Assembly: GCA_009780485.1 (NCBI GenBank) | Contig: WQZZ01000001.1 | Span: 1-56,713 of the forward strand | Length of the DNA: 56,713 nt | Direction: 5' to 3' | Origin: Defluviitaleaceae bacterium | Lineage (GTDB): Bacteria > Bacillota > Clostridia > Lachnospirales > WRAX01 | In this document: positions 4,114-54,300 of the stretch, piece by piece | Numbering within the stretch: the stretch's first letter is position 1 | Layout: every line of letters starts with the position of its first letter | Program-made: the position numbers and the translations under genes | The notes under the pieces: model-generated | What the model saw: only the letters and a program-made list of their open reading frames with translations | What the model was told of the DNA's origin: nothing | Databases searched by the model: none

Positions 4114-6990
4114 ATGAATGGTTATAAACTGTTGTACAAAAGGGCGTTGCCCCATATGGATGGGGAAGGTTTTGTTTACGAACATAAATCTGGGGCGAAA
4201 GTTATGCACATTAAAAACGGGGATAACAACAAGGTGTTTTCTGTCACGTTTAGGACACCGCCAACAGATGATACGGGAATTGCCCATATTATGGAACACG
4301 CCGTGCTTAACGGCAGTCAGAAATACCCGCTAAAAGACCCTTTTATGCAACTTGCCAACGGCTCTTTGTACACCTTTTTGAACGCATTTACCTATCCAGA
4401 CAAGACCATGTATCCCGTGGCAAGCACCAATGACACGGATTTTATGAATTTGATGGATGTGTATTTGGATGCGGTGTTTTTTCCGATGATTTATGAACGC
4501 CCAACCACCCTTGCACAAGAGGGGTGGCATTATCAGCTTGAAGATGGGGAATTAAAATATAACGGGATTGTATATAACGAGATGAAAGGGGCGTTAAGCG
4601 ACCCTTATCGTTTGTTAAGCAATGTGGTGGGGCGGGAAATGCACCCAAAGTCCTGCCTTCGCCATGAAAGCGGTGGCAACCCCGAAGCTATACCAAACAT
4701 AACCAATGATGATTTTATAGACTTTCATAAAAAATATTATCGCCCAGAAAATGCTTTGATTTATTTTTATGGCGATATGGACATTGAAGTTTGCTTCCAA
4801 AAGATGGCAGACAGCTATTTGTCTAAGTTTGAACCCACTGGCGAGATTGTGGAGATTACCCCAGAACCACCTCTCGGCAAGACGATTTATACCACAGGGG
4901 AATACTCTGTCACCGAAGGGGATGACTTAAACGACAATTACATGATTGCAAGTTATCTGTTACCCCACAGCACCCCGCCAATTGATGTGGTGGCTTTGAA
5001 GGTGCTTAATTATATATTACTCGCCACCCCAGCATCCCCTCTGTATAAGGCAATGGCGGAAGCCGAGCTTGGCGAGGACATCTCTGGCTCTATGTCCAAA
5101 GACGTGATACACCCTTATTGGGGCATTACCCTAAAAAATGCCACACTTAGCTGTGAGGGGCTGGACAAGTTCCTTGAAAACTTCTTAACGGAGCTGTGCG
5201 ACAAAGGTTTGAGCAAAGATTTTGTAATGGCTTGTCTTAACTTTTTAGAGTTTCAAGCCAAAGAGGAAGATTTTGGGTCAAGCACACCAAAGGGGCTTGT
5301 TTACAATTTGCGAAGCATGGCAAGCTGGCTGTATGGAGATGACCCGTTTGAGCCGTTAATGGGTATTGACCACTTAGAAAAAGTTCGTAATGCCAGCCAA
5401 GATGGAGGCTTTTTCGAGGGGCTTATACGTAAATATTTACTGGATAACAAACACAAGGGCTTTGCACAACTTAACCCTGTACTTGGGCTGGACGAGAAAA
5501 AAGAGCAAGAAGAACAGGAAAAACTTGCGACTATAAACGCTGGTTTGACAGATGCTGACAGAGAGGACATTAAGGCTAAACAACAAGCCTTAAAGGAGTT
5601 CCAAGAAACCCCTGACACCGCAGAGGTGTTGGCACTTATCCCTCGCCTTGCTGTGGCTGACATTAAAACAAAAATCGAACGTACACCCCTGCAAATACGT
5701 GATGAGGGCGGGGCTAAGGTTCTGCATAGCCCACTGGAGACCAACGGCATAATCTATACCGCTATGTTGTTTGATATGAGGACTGTCCCTGCGGACTTAT
5801 TGCCTTATGTCAACATTTTGCAATATATGCTGTCCAAGGTTGCCACCAAAAACCACGACACAACCCATCTAACCCAAGAAATTAAAGGTTATTTAGGCGG
5901 TCTTGGTTTTTCTATGGACATTATAAGCAAACAAAACGGTGACTTTGTGCCAATGGCTGTTGTGTCTGCCAAGTTTTTAAGCCAAAACACCACCAAGATG
6001 TTTGACATTGTAGCGGAGATTTTGCAATATTCTGTTTTTAGTGACAAAAGTCAAGTTAAAACCTATCTACTGGAAATGCGTGCGGGCATGGAAGATTGGG
6101 TGCTTACATCTGGTTCCAGCCTTGCGGTCAGCCGTTCCATAACATATTTTGCACCAGCAGCCGCTTATCAAGATGCAGCAAATGGGCTTGGTTACTATGA
6201 AATTCTTAAAAATCTTTGCGACAACTTTGATGCAGAGTTCGAGAACCTGCAAGATAAATTACACTACACCGCATGGACAATTTACAACCGCAACCGTGTC
6301 CAGTACAGCTTGGTTTGTAATGAGGAGCTTTACGACCAATATGTAGCTGGGCTTGCAGGTTTTAACTCTATACTTGTTGGTGAGGATTTGCCAGATGCGG
6401 AACAGCCAGCCCTTGTAACTCCAAAAAACGAAGGGCTTGTCACCGCAAGCAAGGTGCAGTATTGTGCCTTGTCTGCCAATTTTGGTGCTGACGGATATGG
6501 TTATCATGGCGGATTGAAAGTTCTTGGTAATGTGCTGGACAATTATTTGTATGAGGAAATTCGGGTAAAAGGTGGCAGTTATGGATGTGGTTCTGGTTTT
6601 AACACAAGGGGCATTATGTTTATGTACAGCTACCGTGACCCAGAGCTGGAAGCCACCTATGAAATTTTCAAGAAGTCAGCGGAACATATACGCAATTTGG
6701 ATTTGAGCCAGAGAGAGATGGAAAAGTTTATTATCGGGACAATTAGGGCATTTGATAGACCCGCAACTAATGCCCATAAGGGGCTTACGGCGGCGGTTAA
6801 TTATCTGCAAGGTTGGACTGATGACGACAAACAAAAAGAACGTGACGAGATTTTAGCGACCGACCTAACAAAAATCAAGTCTTTTGCGGATTTGTTGGTT
6901 GATGCTGTGGCACAGGATAATATTTGTGCCGTGGGCAGTGCGACAGCGTTGGAGGGCAAGCCGATGTTTGGGAGTGTGTATAAGATTTAA
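4114..6990 (+). CDS. M16-family zinc metallopeptidase (large insulinase / PreP-like, M16C type)
   Basis: 958 aa with the inverted zinc motif HIMEHAVLNGS (HxxEH) near the N-terminus. The size fits four-domain single-chain pitrilysins. Confidence 0.88.
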   Translation: MNGYKLLYKRALPHMDGEGFVYEHKSGAKVMHIKNGDNNKVFSVTFRTPPTDDTGIAHIMEHAVLNGSQKYPLKDPFMQLANGSLYTFLNAFTYPDKTMYPVASTNDTDFMNLMDVYLDAVFFPMIYERPTTLAQEGWHYQLEDGELKYNGIVYNEMKGALSDPYRLLSNVVGREMHPKSCLRHESGGNPEAIPNITNDDFIDFHKKYYRPENALIYFYGDMDIEVCFQKMADSYLSKFEPTGEIVEITPEPPLGKTIYTTGEYSVTEGDDLNDNYMIASYLLPHSTPPIDVVALKVLNYILLATPASPLYKAMAEAELGEDISGSMSKDVIHPYWGITLKNATLSCEGLDKFLENFLTELCDKGLSKDFVMACLNFLEFQAKEEDFGSSTPKGLVYNLRSMASWLYGDDPFEPLMGIDHLEKVRNASQDGGFFEGLIRKYLLDNKHKGFAQLNPVLGLDEKKEQEEQEKLATINAGLTDADREDIKAKQQALKEFQETPDTAEVLALIPRLAVADIKTKIERTPLQIRDEGGAKVLHSPLETNGIIYTAMLFDMRTVPADLLPYVNILQYMLSKVATKNHDTTHLTQEIKGYLGGLGFSMDIISKQNGDFVPMAVVSAKFLSQNTTKMFDIVAEILQYSVFSDKSQVKTYLLEMRAGMEDWVLTSGSSLAVSRSITYFAPAAAYQDAANGLGYYEILKNLCDNFDAEFENLQDKLHYTAWTIYNRNRVQYSLVCNEELYDQYVAGLAGFNSILVGEDLPDAEQPALVTPKNEGLVTASKVQYCALSANFGADGYGYHGGLKVLGNVLDNYLYEEIRVKGGSYGCGSGFNTRGIMFMYSYRDPELEATYEIFKKSAEHIRNLDLSQREMEKFIIGTIRAFDRPATNAHKGLTAAVNYLQGWTDDDKQKERDEILATDLTKIKSFADLLVDAVAQDNICAVGSATALEGKPMFGSVYKI

Positions 6991-7024
6991 GGTTGTTATA
7001 TACAAGGCATGGCGGTGCTTTTTT

Positions 7025-7079
7025 GGGATTGGACGGTATCGTCTGCATAAATGGGACGAGCAATGCTCGCCCCTACCAG
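7025..7079. repeat. REP-like palindromic element (core GGGACGAGCAATGCTCGCCCCTACC plus GGTATCGTCTGCATAA flank)
   Basis: Core at 7053..7077. Same about 55-nt unit as 15051..15108. Confidence 0.85.
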
Positions 7080-7152
7080 TTCGGATTGATGTGTTATATG
7101 TATTTACCGAAATTAGTATAAAAAAGGGCGACCTATTGTCGCCCTTTTATTG

Positions 7153-7335
7153 TTAACGCCCGCAACTTGGGCATGGTTCTCCAATTCTTTCGATTATAAG
7201 CCTGTCACCTTCAACATACACGTTTACTTTCGTGCCTTTTTCTAGGCATAGAAGGTCTCTGGCTTCTGATGGTATTACAATTCTGTTTAATTCATCGAGA
7301 ATTCTTTCTTTTAGAAATTTCTTTTTGTTTTCCAT
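7153..7335 (-). CDS. AbrB/SpoVT-type swapped-hairpin domain protein, 60 aa, C-terminal CPSC
   Basis: LDELNRIVIPSEARDLL matches the AbrB-family VDELGRVVIP.E.R motif. The second ATG (7335) was chosen for better spacing from AAAGGAG. Confidence 0.7.
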   Translation of the reverse strand: MENKKKFLKERILDELNRIVIPSEARDLLCLEKGTKVNVYVEGDRLIIERIGEPCPSCGR

Positions 7336-7552
7336 GGGCATCGCTCCTTTCTTATACCCTTTTTGTCAATAAGTGCTTGACAAGAAGACCTAAGATAGGG
7401 TACAATGTCCCTTAGGTCCTGTTTGGGGTCTGACGTGGTGCTTGCCTGGTTTCATTTGCGATGGATTAGGCAAGCACCGATTTACAGTACCCCGTTGGAA
7501 GAAATATATTAGAACTGTTTCCAGTATACGACAAAATTCTGTGGATGTCAAG
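7336..7552 (-). promoter_or_regulatory. long structured 5' leader of the AbrB-like gene (module copy A) with its promoter TTGACA-17-TATACT
   Basis: Minus-strand -35 is the reverse complement of 7546..7551; -10 is the reverse complement of 7523..7528. Nested hairpin: 7425-7432/7485-7493 and 7437-7447/7468-7478. Second hairpin: 7387-7394/7411-7418. Conserved box TTGTCAAGCA. Confidence 0.55.
7377..7406 (+). promoter_or_regulatory. antisense promoter TTGACA-18-TACAAT embedded in leader copy A
   Basis: The -10 lies in the loop of the GACCTAAG/CTTAGGTC hairpin. Geometry is the same in copies B and D. Confidence 0.55.
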
Positions 7553-7570
7553 AGTTTTTTGCAAAAAAAT

Positions 7571-7600
7571 ATAGGGTGGGGGCTTTTGCCCTCACCCTAT
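7571..7600 (+). terminator. GC-rich hairpin ATAGGGTGGGGGC-TTTT-GCCCTCACCCTAT
   Basis: Inverted repeat seen directly. Likely ends the plus-strand antisense RNA of module A. The U-tract is weak. Confidence 0.45.
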
Positions 7601-7610
7601 AATTGTTTAG

Positions 7611-7639
7611 TTGACAATTGGCGAATTTTGGTGTATAAT
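7611..7639 (+). promoter_or_regulatory. consensus promoter TTGACA-17-TATAAT for the small-peptide transcript
   Basis: Perfect hexamers at 7611..7616 and 7634..7639. Confidence 0.65.
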
Positions 7640-7695
7640 CACAATTGCGTACTTGGAGGCAGGCTTTGACGCCCTTTTGGAAAGGGGGTTAGCCT

Positions 7696-7809
7696 ATGTG
7701 GATTTGTGAAGTATTCAATCTGATATTTCTTGGCATTGTGGCATTTGTCACACTTGCCGATTACATAGACAGAAAGAAGAAAAGCAAACGCCGCCCTCCC
7801 GACAAGTGA
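7696..7809 (+). CDS. 37-aa hydrophobic peptide with basic tail (type I toxin-like candidate)
   Basis: MWICEVFNLIFLGIVAFVTLADYIDRKKKSKRRPPDK. AAAGGGGG RBS 7 nt upstream, own consensus promoter, and a terminator overlapping the 3' end. Confidence 0.45.
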   Translation: MWICEVFNLIFLGIVAFVTLADYIDRKKKSKRRPPDK

Positions 7810-7905
7810 TAGCGGCGTTTTGATTAAAGTTTTATCTTAATACCCGCAAAGCCTGCCGACTGTGCGTACTGAAGGGATGTTGTGGAAGATATCCCTTCTT
7901 TTATT
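7780..7905 (-). ncRNA. candidate about 125-nt antisense RNA convergent with the small-peptide ORF
   Basis: Starts after the minus-strand TTGACA-17-TATAAT promoter and ends at the 7786..7821 hairpin. Overlaps the last roughly 25-30 nt of the ORF. Contains the hairpin GAAGGGAT/ATCCCTTC. Confidence 0.45.
7786..7821. terminator. bidirectional hairpin AACGCCGC / GCGGCGTT
   Basis: 8-bp GC-rich stem. TTTTGATT follows on the plus strand and TGCTTTTCTTC on the minus strand. Confidence 0.6.
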
Positions 7906-7911
7906 GTTACC

Positions 7912-7940
7912 ATTATATCATCTTTCACCTACTTTGTCAA
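7912..7940 (-). promoter_or_regulatory. consensus promoter TTGACA-17-TATAAT on the minus strand
   Basis: Reverse complement of 7905..7945 reads gTTGACAaagtaggtgaaagatgaTATAATggtaac. Confidence 0.65.
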
Positions 7941-7955
7941 CACAAAAGTTGACTA

Positions 7956-7984
7956 TTGACGAAATTATGTATAGGGGATATAAT
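7956..7984 (+). promoter_or_regulatory. TTGACG-17-TATAAT promoter of pdp
   Basis: Hexamers at 7956..7961 and 7979..7984. RBS GAGGATGCAGGTGA precedes the ATG at 8011. Confidence 0.55.
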
Positions 7985-8010
7985 TAAGGCAAGAGGATGC
8001 AGGTGATGAT

Positions 8011-9258
8011 ATGAATATATTTGAAATTATCCAGAAGAAAAAACAATCCAAACCCCTGACCCGCCAAGAAATTGATTTTATGGTGGAAGGTTTTTGTAAT
8101 GGGACTGTAAGCGAGGGGCAAATGGCTGCTTTGCTTATGGCAATTTGCATAAATGGCTTTAACCGTGAGGAAACAGCGTCACTTACCCTTGCCATGGCTG
8201 GGTCTGGTGATGTGCTGGACTTTTCTGGTAGGGACTGGGTTATTGCGGACAAACATTCCACGGGGGGCGTGGGGGACAAGTTGACCTTAACTGTTGCCCC
8301 TATGTGTGCCATACTTGGTGTAAGTATGGCAAAAATGTCTGGTCGCTCGCTGGGACATACGGGCGGGACGATTGATAAGTTGGAAGCCATACCAGGTTTT
8401 AAGGTGGACTTGCCAAATGAAGTGCTTATGGACATTTTGGGGCGGGTTGGGCTTTTTATTGCAAGCCAAACCGCAAACCTTGCCCCTGCTGATAAGGTGA
8501 TTTATGCCCTGCGTGATAGTACGGCAACCGTTGACAGCCCTGCCTTGATAGCTTCTAGTATTATGAGCAAGAAAATTGCGGCGGGGGCGGGGGCTATTGT
8601 GCTTGATGTTAAGGTTGGCAGTGGGGCGTTTATGAAAACGCTAGAGGAAGCTCGTAATCTTGCCCAAATTATGGTTGATATTGGTAAGGATTGCGGGCGA
8701 AAGGTGTCTGCGGTGCTTACTGCGATGGATGCACCACTTGGCAATGCCGTTGGTAATGGGGTTGAAGTGCTAGAAGCCGTAGAGGTGTTGCAAAACAAAG
8801 GTCCAGCCGACATTAGAGAGCTTAGTGTGGAGCTGACTGCCCAAATTCTTTCCCTTGCCAAAGGTGTGGAGGAAAGTGTCGCCCGCGACTTGGCAGAAGG
8901 TGTGTTACAAAATGGCTCAGCTTATGAGAAGTTTCGTCAGATGGTTGAGGAGCAAGGTGGCAACCTCGAGGGGATTACGAGCAAAGCCCCCCACAAGATA
9001 ACACAGCTTAAAGCCCCACAAACAGGGCATATTGTCCAGATGTATGGGGAAATTTGTGGCATGGTGGCACATAAAACTGATGGTATTATTTTTCATAAAA
9101 AACTTGGTGATTATGTGGTGGAAGGTCAGACATTGGCCGATGTTTATTTAAGTGAATTTTCAGATGAAGATAACATCTTAGAAAGCCTTTCAAAAGCATA
9201 CACCATAGCCACCGAGAAGCCACTTGCCGCACCTCTCATATACGAGATTATCAGATAG
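8011..9258 (+). CDS. pdp: pyrimidine-nucleoside (thymidine) phosphorylase
   Basis: 415 aa. N-terminal IIQKKK..LT..EI.F.V, the HSTGGVGDK phosphate loop, and the SGRSLGHTGGT motif. Confidence 0.9.
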   Translation: MNIFEIIQKKKQSKPLTRQEIDFMVEGFCNGTVSEGQMAALLMAICINGFNREETASLTLAMAGSGDVLDFSGRDWVIADKHSTGGVGDKLTLTVAPMCAILGVSMAKMSGRSLGHTGGTIDKLEAIPGFKVDLPNEVLMDILGRVGLFIASQTANLAPADKVIYALRDSTATVDSPALIASSIMSKKIAAGAGAIVLDVKVGSGAFMKTLEEARNLAQIMVDIGKDCGRKVSAVLTAMDAPLGNAVGNGVEVLEAVEVLQNKGPADIRELSVELTAQILSLAKGVEESVARDLAEGVLQNGSAYEKFRQMVEEQGGNLEGITSKAPHKITQLKAPQTGHIVQMYGEICGMVAHKTDGIIFHKKLGDYVVEGQTLADVYLSEFSDEDNILESLSKAYTIATEKPLAAPLIYEIIR

Positions 9259-53977: not shown

Positions 53978-54014
53978 AAAACACCATTGCGGGGGTTGAC
54001 CCGCAATGGTGTTT
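53978..54014. terminator. bidirectional hairpin AAACACCATTGCGGG / CCCGCAATGGTGTTT
   Basis: 15-bp perfect stem. T-run on the minus-strand side (reverse complement gives GGTGTTTTTGC). Confidence 0.7.
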
Positions 54015-54035
54015 GGTTTATGTTGAAAAATATGC

Positions 54036-54221
54036 TTGACAAATAGACCTATGAGATGTTAGAATTATCTCAGGTCTAATGGCAGACTTGTATCATTGCC
54101 TGTCTGGGAATTCATTTGGTGTGATTATGCCAGACAGGCAACTTTTATACAAGTCTCTAACTAAGGAATATAAAGGGAATGACCCTAATTACATTTTACA
54201 GGTTGGTTTTATGTTTGTCAA
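54036..54221. ncRNA. orphan copy (D) of the AbrB-leader module: face-to-face promoters and nested hairpins, no downstream ORF
   Basis: Plus strand: TTGACA (54036..54041)-18-TAGAAT (54060..54065). Minus strand: TTGACA (rc 54216..54221)-17-TAAAAT (rc 54193..54198). Stem 54085-54092/54147-54154 plus an inner stem. Aligns along its length with the reverse complement of 15168..15370. Confidence 0.55.
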
Positions 54222-54262
54222 CACTTTTTTGAAGTTTTTTTGTTGAGTGACGCTGAATACAC

Positions 54263-54300
54263 AAAACAATGCCTACGCAACCAAGCGTAGGCATTGTTTT
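54263..54300. terminator. bidirectional terminator AAAACAATGCCTACGC / GCGTAGGCATTGTTTT
   Basis: 16-bp stem between module D and the convergent small gene. Confidence 0.75.

Follow-up and report, generated by a model that had tools for sequence, protein, structure and literature searches.

A covarying leader RNA with a conserved antisense promoter motif recurs in about 43 cassettes of a Defluviitaleaceae genome

The window analysed here is a stretch of 56,713 nucleotides (nt), contig WQZZ01000001.1 of assembly GCA_009780485.1 from a Defluviitaleaceae bacterium whose genome is labelled G000 below. Its subject is copy A, an element on the minus strand at 7336-7552 that precedes the gene for a 60-amino-acid (aa) AbrB-like protein. 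The element combines a leader RNA whose helices covary strongly with a conserved promoter motif on the opposite strand that faces the sense promoter. We judge it somewhat better than an even bet, from comparative sequence evidence, that copy A is an expression cassette under cis-antisense control, comparable to SymE/SymR or plasmid countertranscripts, and each cassette gene is probably switched by its own antisense RNA. The family of RNAs and regulatory cassettes is new, and the mechanism proposed for it, cis-antisense control, is of a known kind. A sequence-only reading had proposed this arrangement; its observation at 7336-7552 is confirmed and its interpretation is supported.

Leader structure and covariation

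On the minus strand, copy A has the order promoter, nested hairpin, second hairpin, box, short hairpin, ribosome binding site (RBS), 60-aa gene and terminator. The outer and inner stems of the nested hairpin are named P1 and P2, the second hairpin is named P3, and the short hairpin that contains the box is named P4 (Table 1). Sequence reading combined with scans placed the promoters, the nested hairpin, P3, the box, the RBS and the gene exactly where they had been claimed to lie.

The copy A leader has a predicted folding energy of -64.4 kcal/mol, compared with -41.8 +/- 4.3 kcal/mol for shuffled sequences (z = -5.2), and P1/P2 by itself reaches -32.2 kcal/mol (z = -5.05). The stems thus survive the comparison with shuffled controls that the sequence-only reading had named as a way to refute them. 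When 55 distinct copies were folded singly, 54 reached the P1(P2)-P3 architecture despite differing arm sequences. P4 is present in the minimum-energy folds of nearly all copies, in differing registers.

The structure-aware alignment that had been proposed for copies A, B and D of the window was widened to 58 sequences from several genomes, and the architecture with compensatory stem changes that had been described for copies A and B extends over all of them. In these model alignments P2 carries changes on both sides at 10 of its 10 pairs, with 97% of cells paired. None of 500 shuffles matched the observed covariation score, and sliding the 3′ partner by 1-3 columns as a control lowered pairing to 23-45%. 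P1 is represented by many self-complementary sequences, including GACTTGTA/TACAAGTC, GGGGT.CTG/CAGACCCC, AAGGGC/GCCCTT, GGATTGGT/ACCAGTCC and TTGGTTGTGTGG/CCACACACAGCCAA. P3 likewise covaries, for example as GACCTGAG/CTCAGGTC, GACCTAAG/CTTAGGTC and GGTCTAGGTG/CACCTATGGCC. Copies A and B differ by three double changes in P2 and one in P3, and their P1 sequences are entirely different. As judged from these alignments, the structure of the leader RNA is under selection.

A further hairpin, at the 5′ end, appears in the predicted fold of copy A and uses bases of the -10 hexamer. Since these bases precede the likely transcription start near 7516, the hairpin named P0, found in B-type copies, is probably missing from copy A. 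Downstream of P3 lies a U-rich stretch (UAUUUGUC in most relatives). This tail is moderately U-rich, the P3 loop spans 13-16 nt, and the terminator scan made no call at P3. No alternative anti-terminator structure with covariation was found in the leader either. In the minimum-energy folds of A1-, A2- and A6-type copies, the 3′ half of P3 pairs with the RBS/AUG region. Sequestration of the RBS in this manner was rejected as a general feature, since the registers vary by subfamily and the pairing is absent in A3 and B types; on these models it is a hypothesis at the level of subfamilies only.

A search of the whole window against Rfam 15 gave no match at gathering thresholds. At E <= 10, the region 7100-7700 gave chance-level matches to unrelated small RNAs and terminators, none of them over the P1/P2-P3-box core. 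The pattern of conservation also differs from that of a riboswitch, in that the junctions and the apical loop are variable and conservation is confined to the stems, the box and a -10-like hexamer. No conserved open reading frame (ORF) was found in the leader. Two candidates of 53 and 35 aa in the leader and the antisense RNA were rejected, as they begin upstream of the predicted transcription starts and, given the covariation, their frames are broken.

The opposing promoter and the use of each strand

The sense promoter of copy A matches 11 of 12 consensus positions, and a promoter with equal spacing precedes all 32 of the own-genome copies for which upstream sequence is available. Expression from a different proximal promoter had been named as a second ground for refutation, and a promoter scan found no other sense promoter between the box and the RBS. 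A possible third sense promoter at the 3′ arm of P4 (TTGACAA) was rejected because no -10 element lies at usable spacing.

An antisense promoter with its -10 element in the P3 loop had been proposed for copy A, and the motif is widely kept. On the opposite strand, 51 of 55 distinct copies, drawn from several genomes, carry TTGAC(A)-16/17/18-TAnnnT, 49 of them with a spacer of 17 or 18 nt. Over all 55 copies, a best spacer of 18 nt is the commonest (41 copies), ahead of 17 nt (11) and 16 nt (three). Its -10 hexamers are TATAAT (24 copies), TAGAAT (11), TAAGAT (6) and TACAAT (5), with others seen once or twice, and the promoter is kept while the surrounding P3 stem covaries. Because only T1, A2 and T6 of the hexamer are fixed, so that variation falls at the least critical positions as it does in -10 elements, the motif is by this comparison conserved as a promoter, with variation unlike that expected of an RNA loop motif. 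B-type copies carry an extra TG two bases upstream of this hexamer, creating an extended -10 element. In addition, the covariance model matched the antisense strand of several copies, aligning the box to the sense -35 context GCTTGACAA. It follows that the 10-nt box is an extended -35 element read in reverse complement, and that the cassette is quasi-symmetric around P1/P2.

Terminator-like sites for an antisense transcript were found in copies A, B and D. The sequence-only reading had placed the end of the plus-strand RNA at the hairpin at 7570-7601. This is plausible for copy A, where the scan reports a terminator-like site that makes a candidate 3′ end, but the location is not a conserved one: in B-type copies the site is P0 read backwards (15221-15206, minus strand inside P0), and in copy D it lies at 54263-54300. 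The B-type antisense RNA probably stops short of the sense promoter. As a separate observation, the T-tract of the B-type P0 terminator overlaps the sense -10 element and start region.

The two helical regions differ in the strand on which they appear to be used. A·C 1x1 mismatches are absent from the 54 distinct P3 sequences, which together contain 38 G·U pairs. Because G·U pairs are frequent and A·C mismatches are absent, P3 is, on this count, selected in the sense RNA, and is neither a DNA palindrome nor a helix of the antisense RNA. Independently of the G·U evidence, the predicted antisense start near 7413-7415 falls within the 5′ arm of P3. P1/P2 shows 40 G·U pairs and nine A·C mismatches. 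The internal loops and the 20-nt apical loops of P1/P2 are rich in A (35%) and C (28%) on the sense strand, and because of this composition the complement can form a longer, G·U-rich hairpin. In 64 of 65 copies the antisense form of P1/P2 is predicted to be the more stable one, by a mean of 4.6 kcal/mol (G·U pairs 15% versus 3.6%); the values for copy A are -39.8 kcal/mol for the antisense and -32.2 kcal/mol for the sense strand. In these models, the asymmetry fits a stably folded antisense regulator that faces a more open target loop.

These features suggest a mechanism in which the near-consensus sigma-A-type promoter would drive an mRNA in which a leader of about 180 nt precedes the coding region for the 60-aa AbrB-like protein. 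The sense leader would present P1/P2 with its open, A/C-rich 20-nt loop, followed by P3, P4 with the box, and the RBS. Together, the P3 loop and the box would serve as the opposite-strand promoter, which would read back through P1/P2 and across the sense promoter. Its product would be a non-coding RNA of about 100-190 nt that matches the first ~100 nt of the mRNA with perfect complementarity and folds as a more stable, G·U-rich form of the same hairpin. The expected length is about 130 nt in B-type copies and, with an end at 7570-7601, about 190 nt in copy A. This antisense RNA would recognise its own mRNA through the complementary apical loops, which have diverged between paralogs. The resulting duplex, or collision of polymerases between promoters about 100 bp apart, would then set the level of the small protein. 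Possible routes include RNase III-type cleavage or destabilisation of the mRNA, or an opening of the base of P3 that would remodel the P4/RBS region.

The divergence of the loops can be compared with that of the rest of the cassette. Within subfamilies, the P2 stems are identical (Jukes-Cantor (JC) distance 0), and P3 together with the box has a JC distance of 0.12. The apical loop has a JC distance of 0.36-0.41 plus insertions and deletions, with its length held at 19-23 nt. Because this distance is about the synonymous rate of the cassette genes (dS 0.32-0.42), the loop appears to drift neutrally under constraint on its length and composition, and diversifying selection on the loop was ruled out on the same comparison. 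Neutral drift suffices to make each loop pair specific to its copy. A role of the loop as a guide to trans targets was also rejected, since the 13-mer matches found outside it either lie in paralogs or are no more frequent than chance predicts.

Copies, cargo and setting of the cassette

The sequence-only reading had counted three or four copies of this family, which proved far too low. BLAST, nhmmer and a covariance model (R1) identified about 43 copies in the own genome (33 strong and ~10 divergent), a draft of 2.04 Mb in 169 contigs that is 86% complete. This corresponds to approximately one cassette per 50 kb. At least 10 contigs end inside a cassette or no more than 300 nt from one (contigs C50, C98, C163, C123, C69, C109, C168, C121, C77 and C144). 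The cassettes thus break the assembly; the true copy number probably exceeds 43, and several flanks are missing. The box is invariant across 33 own-genome copies, with exact copies at 7374, 15361 and 54033 of the window. A scan of the genome contigs with a 15-base box pattern gave mostly chance matches among the matches listed.

Three subfamilies can be distinguished by their stems. A-type copies, which include copy A, carry GTGCTTGCCT in P2 and stand before single-domain AbrB genes with a CPxCGR ending. In B-type copies P2 reads TTGCCTGTCT, and the gene that follows is a tandem-domain AbrB gene of about 115 aa. C-type copies carry the box TTAGTCAAGCACT and the P2 sequence GTGCGTGGGG or ACACGCTGGGTGG, and their cargo consists of two orphan small-protein families of 66 and 76 aa (4-5 copies) with no Pfam, NCBIfam or PADLOC match.

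Overall, the cargo of the 43 own-genome copies comprises ~30 AbrB-like genes, 4-5 unrelated small ORFs and ~8 copies with no gene or a remnant, and the cassettes of relatives carry additional unrelated small ORFs. Copy D (54030-54225, minus strand) retains a full promoter, leader and antisense promoter but no gene, and a strong terminator (53979-54014) lies 25 nt after its box. At least seven further gene-less or remnant copies are present (C36, C62, C92, C26, C48, C7 and C37:3333). The proposal that the leader, and not the coding sequence, is the conserved unit therefore stands, as single-domain AbrB genes with CPxCGR, tandem AbrB genes, at least two orphan families and gene-less remnants all share it.

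The copy A protein belongs to the AbrB/SpoVT/MazE superfamily, scoring above the curated cutoffs of both PF04014 (E = 4.5e-7, 30.2 bits against a cutoff of 24.7) and TIGR01439 (E = 8.4e-9, 35 bits against 28.3). The solved structures closest to the cargo protein are the N-domains of AbrB, Abh and SpoVT. Searches of the cargo proteins with PADLOC, Pfam and NCBIfam detected nothing beyond the AbrB domain. A word-indexed protein search for the cargo returned one cluster only, and an exhaustive protein search indicated that AbrB proteins of this kind usually have a four-cysteine C-terminal ribbon, the 60-aa CPxCG(R) form being truncated and rare. Ratios of nonsynonymous to synonymous change (dN/dS) of 0.09 for A-type and 0.27 for B-type genes, at dS 0.32-0.42, indicate that the AbrB-like cargo proteins are under purifying selection.

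Matches to R1 and to a broader model (R2), built from 58 sequences of several genomes, were found in 9 of 20 genomes of the bacterial family. These are metagenome-assembled relatives from termite-gut samples and represent 5 of 15 genera. Most of the nine are multi-copy, with at least 8-16 copies in G001, G002, G007, G014 and G019. Searches of 281 genomes from the order's other families, and of 400 further genomes of the class, gave no match. All sequencing runs found to contain the window are termite-gut metagenomes.

The repeated unit extends from the promoter, at times with upstream repeats resembling repetitive extragenic palindromes (REP), to the gene terminator, and the flanks are unrelated. 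Paralog homology stops approximately 350-410 nt past the core start, which corresponds to the gene terminator in copy A. The unit does not have the hallmarks of a transposon or a miniature inverted-repeat transposable element, as no terminal inverted repeats or target-site duplications were found at its ends and no transposase is present. In the sister species G002, the genes for M16 peptidase and pyrimidine-nucleoside phosphorylase are separated by a spacer of 152 bp that holds no cassette, whereas the corresponding spacer of the own genome measures 1020 bp. Because this syntenic spacer lacks the cassette, cassettes have been gained or lost between species.

In its own setting, copy A is by these features a self-contained expression cassette of about 450 bp with terminators at both ends. 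The hairpin at 7570-7601, read on the minus strand, is predicted to act as a terminator that shields the cassette from upstream transcription, and all A-type paralogs have a hairpin end and a T-run ~25-30 nt 5′ of their own -35 element. The paralogs also share an identical ATG position and the N-terminus MENKKK. In two independent termite-gut metagenomes, unitig contigs tile most of 6800-8100 with zero mismatches; for the interval 7183-7238, coverage comes from the depth table alone. The part specific to copy A, which spans 7390-7701 in one run and 7390-8069 in the other, has flank-level depth. The arrangement is not an assembly artefact, because the metagenome contigs join this part to the right flank at flank depth.

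Table 1. Positions of copy A features, of REP-like repeats in the window and of C-type loci in G000
Feature	Position	Strand	Details
Upstream hairpin	7570-7601	both	GC-rich, between an A-run and a T-run; 14-pair stem, plus-strand tail ATTGTTTAGT (terminator scan)
Minus-strand face of the upstream hairpin	7570-7601	-	TATTTTTTT after the hairpin
Sense promoter TTGACA-17-TATACT	7551-7523 (-35 7551-7546; -10 7528-7523)	-	11/12 consensus positions
P1	7493-7485 with 7432-7425	-	GGGGTACTG pairs with CAGACCCC
P2	7478-7468 with 7447-7437	-	GGTGCTTGCCT pairs with AGGCAAGCACC; joined to P1 by taaatc (5′) and acgt (3′)
P2 apical loop	7467-7448	-	20 nt, A/C-rich
P3	7418-7411 with 7394-7387	-	GACCTAAG pairs with CTTAGGTC; 16-nt loop holds the reverse complement of the antisense -10
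Box	7383-7374	-	TTGTCAAGCA; reverse complement of the extended -35 TGCTTGACAA; also 5′ arm of P4
P4 hairpin/palindrome TTGTCAA-N7-TTGACAA	7383-7363	-	between box and RBS
Antisense promoter TTGACA-18-TACAAT	7377-7406 (-35 7377-7382; -10 7401-7406)	+	11/12 consensus; -10 within P3 loop
RBS AGGAG and ATG	7348-7344; 7335-7333	-	8 nt between
60-aa ORF, AbrB N-domain-like	7335-7153	-	C-terminal end CPSCGR
Intrinsic terminator of the AbrB-like gene	7144-7119	-	GGGCGAC-AATA-GGTCGCCC then TTTTTT
REP-like repeats in the window	7052-7075; about 11016, 13767, 15009, 15080, 16479, 16549, 44632, 53839, 53907
C-type loci in G000	C144:3293, C19:22831, C106:5247, C41:853, C41:11538, C92:4745

Several further observations concern the surroundings of the cassettes. 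The REP-like palindromic repeat (GGGACGGGCAATGCCCGCCCC and variants) occurs at ~250 loci genome-wide and frequently flanks cassettes; this adjacency may be due to chance, given the density of the repeat. Upstream of copy A and divergent from it, the plus strand carries a perfect TTGACA-17-TATAAT promoter (7611-7639) followed by a 37-codon ORF (7696-7809) that encodes a hydrophobic/basic peptide and is absent, together with copy A, from the syntenic spacer of G002. Copy A and its closest paralog, C66:5737, are homologous solely from P2 to the gene end (+58 to +352), and their promoters and P1 5′ regions differ. This partial homology suggests mosaic recombination between cassettes.

Proposed antisense control and its alternatives

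Several points weigh against cis-antisense control of the AbrB-like gene. A search for RNA sequencing runs found none that contains copy A or copy B. The antisense RNA is a comparative inference, as are the production of either RNA, the pairing of the two and the direction of the effect. The predicted antisense start near 7413 is ~65 nt upstream of the RBS, and because the antisense RNA would leave both the RBS and the start codon uncovered, it could affect translation only indirectly. The alternative fold that sequesters the RBS is found in some A-type subfamilies only and lacks positional covariation. The selection of P3 as a sense-RNA helix implies a function of the leader itself that does not obviously need an antisense RNA. 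The stability asymmetry of P1/P2 could equally reflect selection for an unpaired sense loop, as A/C-rich loops favour the complement regardless. Finally, the 3′ end of the antisense RNA would differ between subfamilies (7570-7601 in copy A, P0 in B-type copies and 54263-54300 in copy D).

Among the closest known systems is SymE/SymR of Escherichia coli, a type I toxin-antitoxin system in which a cis-encoded antisense RNA overlaps the 5′ region of the mRNA for a small AbrB-fold protein (Kawano, Aravind & Storz 2007, PMC1891008). As in that system, the antisense promoter is embedded in the sense transcription unit of an AbrB-fold gene (PMC1891008). However, the antisense promoter of the cassettes is located in the 5′ untranslated region (UTR), and its RNA would span only the distal part of the leader. 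The cassettes also differ in the grouping of their proteins with the AbrB/Abh/SpoVT N-domains, in their number of ~43 per genome, in carrying non-AbrB cargo as well, and in showing no evident SOS control.

A special case of cis-antisense control is that the cassettes are type I toxin-antitoxin modules, with the cargo proteins as putative growth-inhibiting toxins and the antisense RNA as antitoxin, and this we regard as unlikely but the most credible of the alternatives. The proteins share the AbrB fold with SymE (PMC1891008), and the high copy number, patchy distribution and presence or absence between sister species are typical of such loci. The leader is retained in gene-less remnants, and the 5′ UTR is long and structured. 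The proteins, however, are not hydrophobic and are nearest to the DNA-binding N-domains of AbrB, Abh and SpoVT. The SymE family PF08845 matched one paralog only (E = 0.16, 12.5 bits against a cutoff of 29) and did not match the copy A protein. Purifying selection on ~30 paralogs (A-type dN/dS 0.09) would equally fit ordinary regulators. Above all, and in contrast to SymR, the antisense RNA would leave the RBS uncovered, which is why we do not class the cassette with type I toxin-antitoxin systems.

Somewhat less probable still is a purely cis-acting element of the sense RNA, such as a protein or ligand site, an mRNA stabiliser or a P3 attenuator, with the antisense motif being incidental or weakly active. 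The sense-strand selection of P3 favours this explanation, as does the apical loop, which is A/C-rich and of constant length (19-23 nt). The U-rich stretch that follows P3 could make it a leaky attenuator, and gene-less copies terminate soon after the box. Conservation is nevertheless found in the stems and two hexamers rather than in the variable junctions and loops, leaving no candidate ligand pocket, and no Rfam family matches. The near-fixed distance, mostly 17-18 nt, between TTGAC and TAnnnT in 51 of 55 copies across genera is also hard to explain as an RNA loop motif.

Transcriptional interference, in which collision or occlusion between the face-to-face promoters would create a bistable switch and RNA pairing would be secondary, as has been proposed for prgQ/prgX, appears improbable as the main mechanism. 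Both promoters match 11 of 12 consensus positions with predicted starts about 100 bp apart, the copy A antisense transcript must traverse the sense promoter to reach 7570-7601, and the T-tract overlap in B-type copies points in the same direction. This explanation leaves the covarying P1/P2 and P3 helices unaccounted for, however, and the B-type antisense RNA probably ends before the sense promoter.

Least probable is a DNA-level element, such as the end of a mobile element, a recombination site or a cruciform whose hairpins reflect single-stranded DNA folding: the many dispersed copies, often beside REP-like repeats, and the lack of copy A in the sister species' spacer would suit it, but the G·U pairs of P3 are strand-specific (38 versus 0 A·C), the unit runs exactly from promoter to terminator without terminal inverted repeats, target duplications or a transposase, and adjacency to a repeat with ~250 loci is expected by chance.

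Counterparts of cis-antisense control are also known from plasmids. The countertranscripts of pT181 (RNAI/II), pIP501 (RNAIII) and R1 (CopA/CopT) arise from strong antisense promoters that lie within the leaders of the mRNAs they regulate. Their complementary stem-loops are expected to make loop-loop kissing contacts first, and the loop sequence determines specificity among related copies. The cassettes share with them a leader-embedded antisense promoter and complementary stem-loops in both predicted RNAs, but are chromosomal and dispersed, and encode small DNA-binding-type proteins rather than a replication initiator. For attenuation of the pT181/pIP501 type, P3 and its U-rich tail are no more than a candidate attenuator between the target region and the RBS. 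In prgQ/prgX of the Enterococcus faecalis plasmid pCF10, face-to-face promoters no more than a few hundred bp apart create a switch through interference and antisense RNA. The cassettes likewise have face-to-face promoters with overlapping predicted transcripts, although they lack a coding gene on the antisense side and a peptide pheromone circuit, and their copy number is far higher.

On the protein side, the N-terminal swapped-hairpin DNA-binding domain of Bacillus AbrB, Abh and SpoVT (PDB 2K1N, 1Z0R, 2FY9, 2RO5) aligns with residues 11-51. The copy A protein differs from these in being only 60 aa long and in having a single CPxCGR knuckle in place of the C-terminal multimerisation domain; its longer relatives have the four-Cys ribbon. 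The B-type cargo resembles MraZ in placing two domains in one chain.

To our knowledge, no type I-like system with an AbrB-N-domain effector has been described in this Gram-positive lineage. A bolder and rather doubtful extension of cis-antisense control is that the ~43 cassettes are an expanded set of antisense switches or addiction modules, each addressable on its own. Their loop specificity would provide dozens of orthogonal, possibly bistable controls over small DNA-binding proteins of the AbrB fold and over further small proteins, in a type I-like or regulatory system with an AbrB-N-domain effector.

The leader represents an undescribed, strongly covarying RNA family that is restricted to one family of uncultured gut Clostridia, with a copy number that is extreme for a 2-Mb genome. 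It forms part of a compact natural cassette, in which two near-consensus face-to-face promoters and a structured leader with its predicted antisense partner are reused before unrelated small genes. The finding also raises the question of what role ~30 AbrB-N-domain paralogs play in one small genome. If antisense control is real, the cassettes would constitute a natural library of antisense/target pairs with diverged loops for studies of specificity and crosstalk, and may be a source of orthogonal regulators for Gram-positive synthetic biology. The precedent set by SymE, an AbrB-fold protein under antisense control, would then extend to the Firmicutes.

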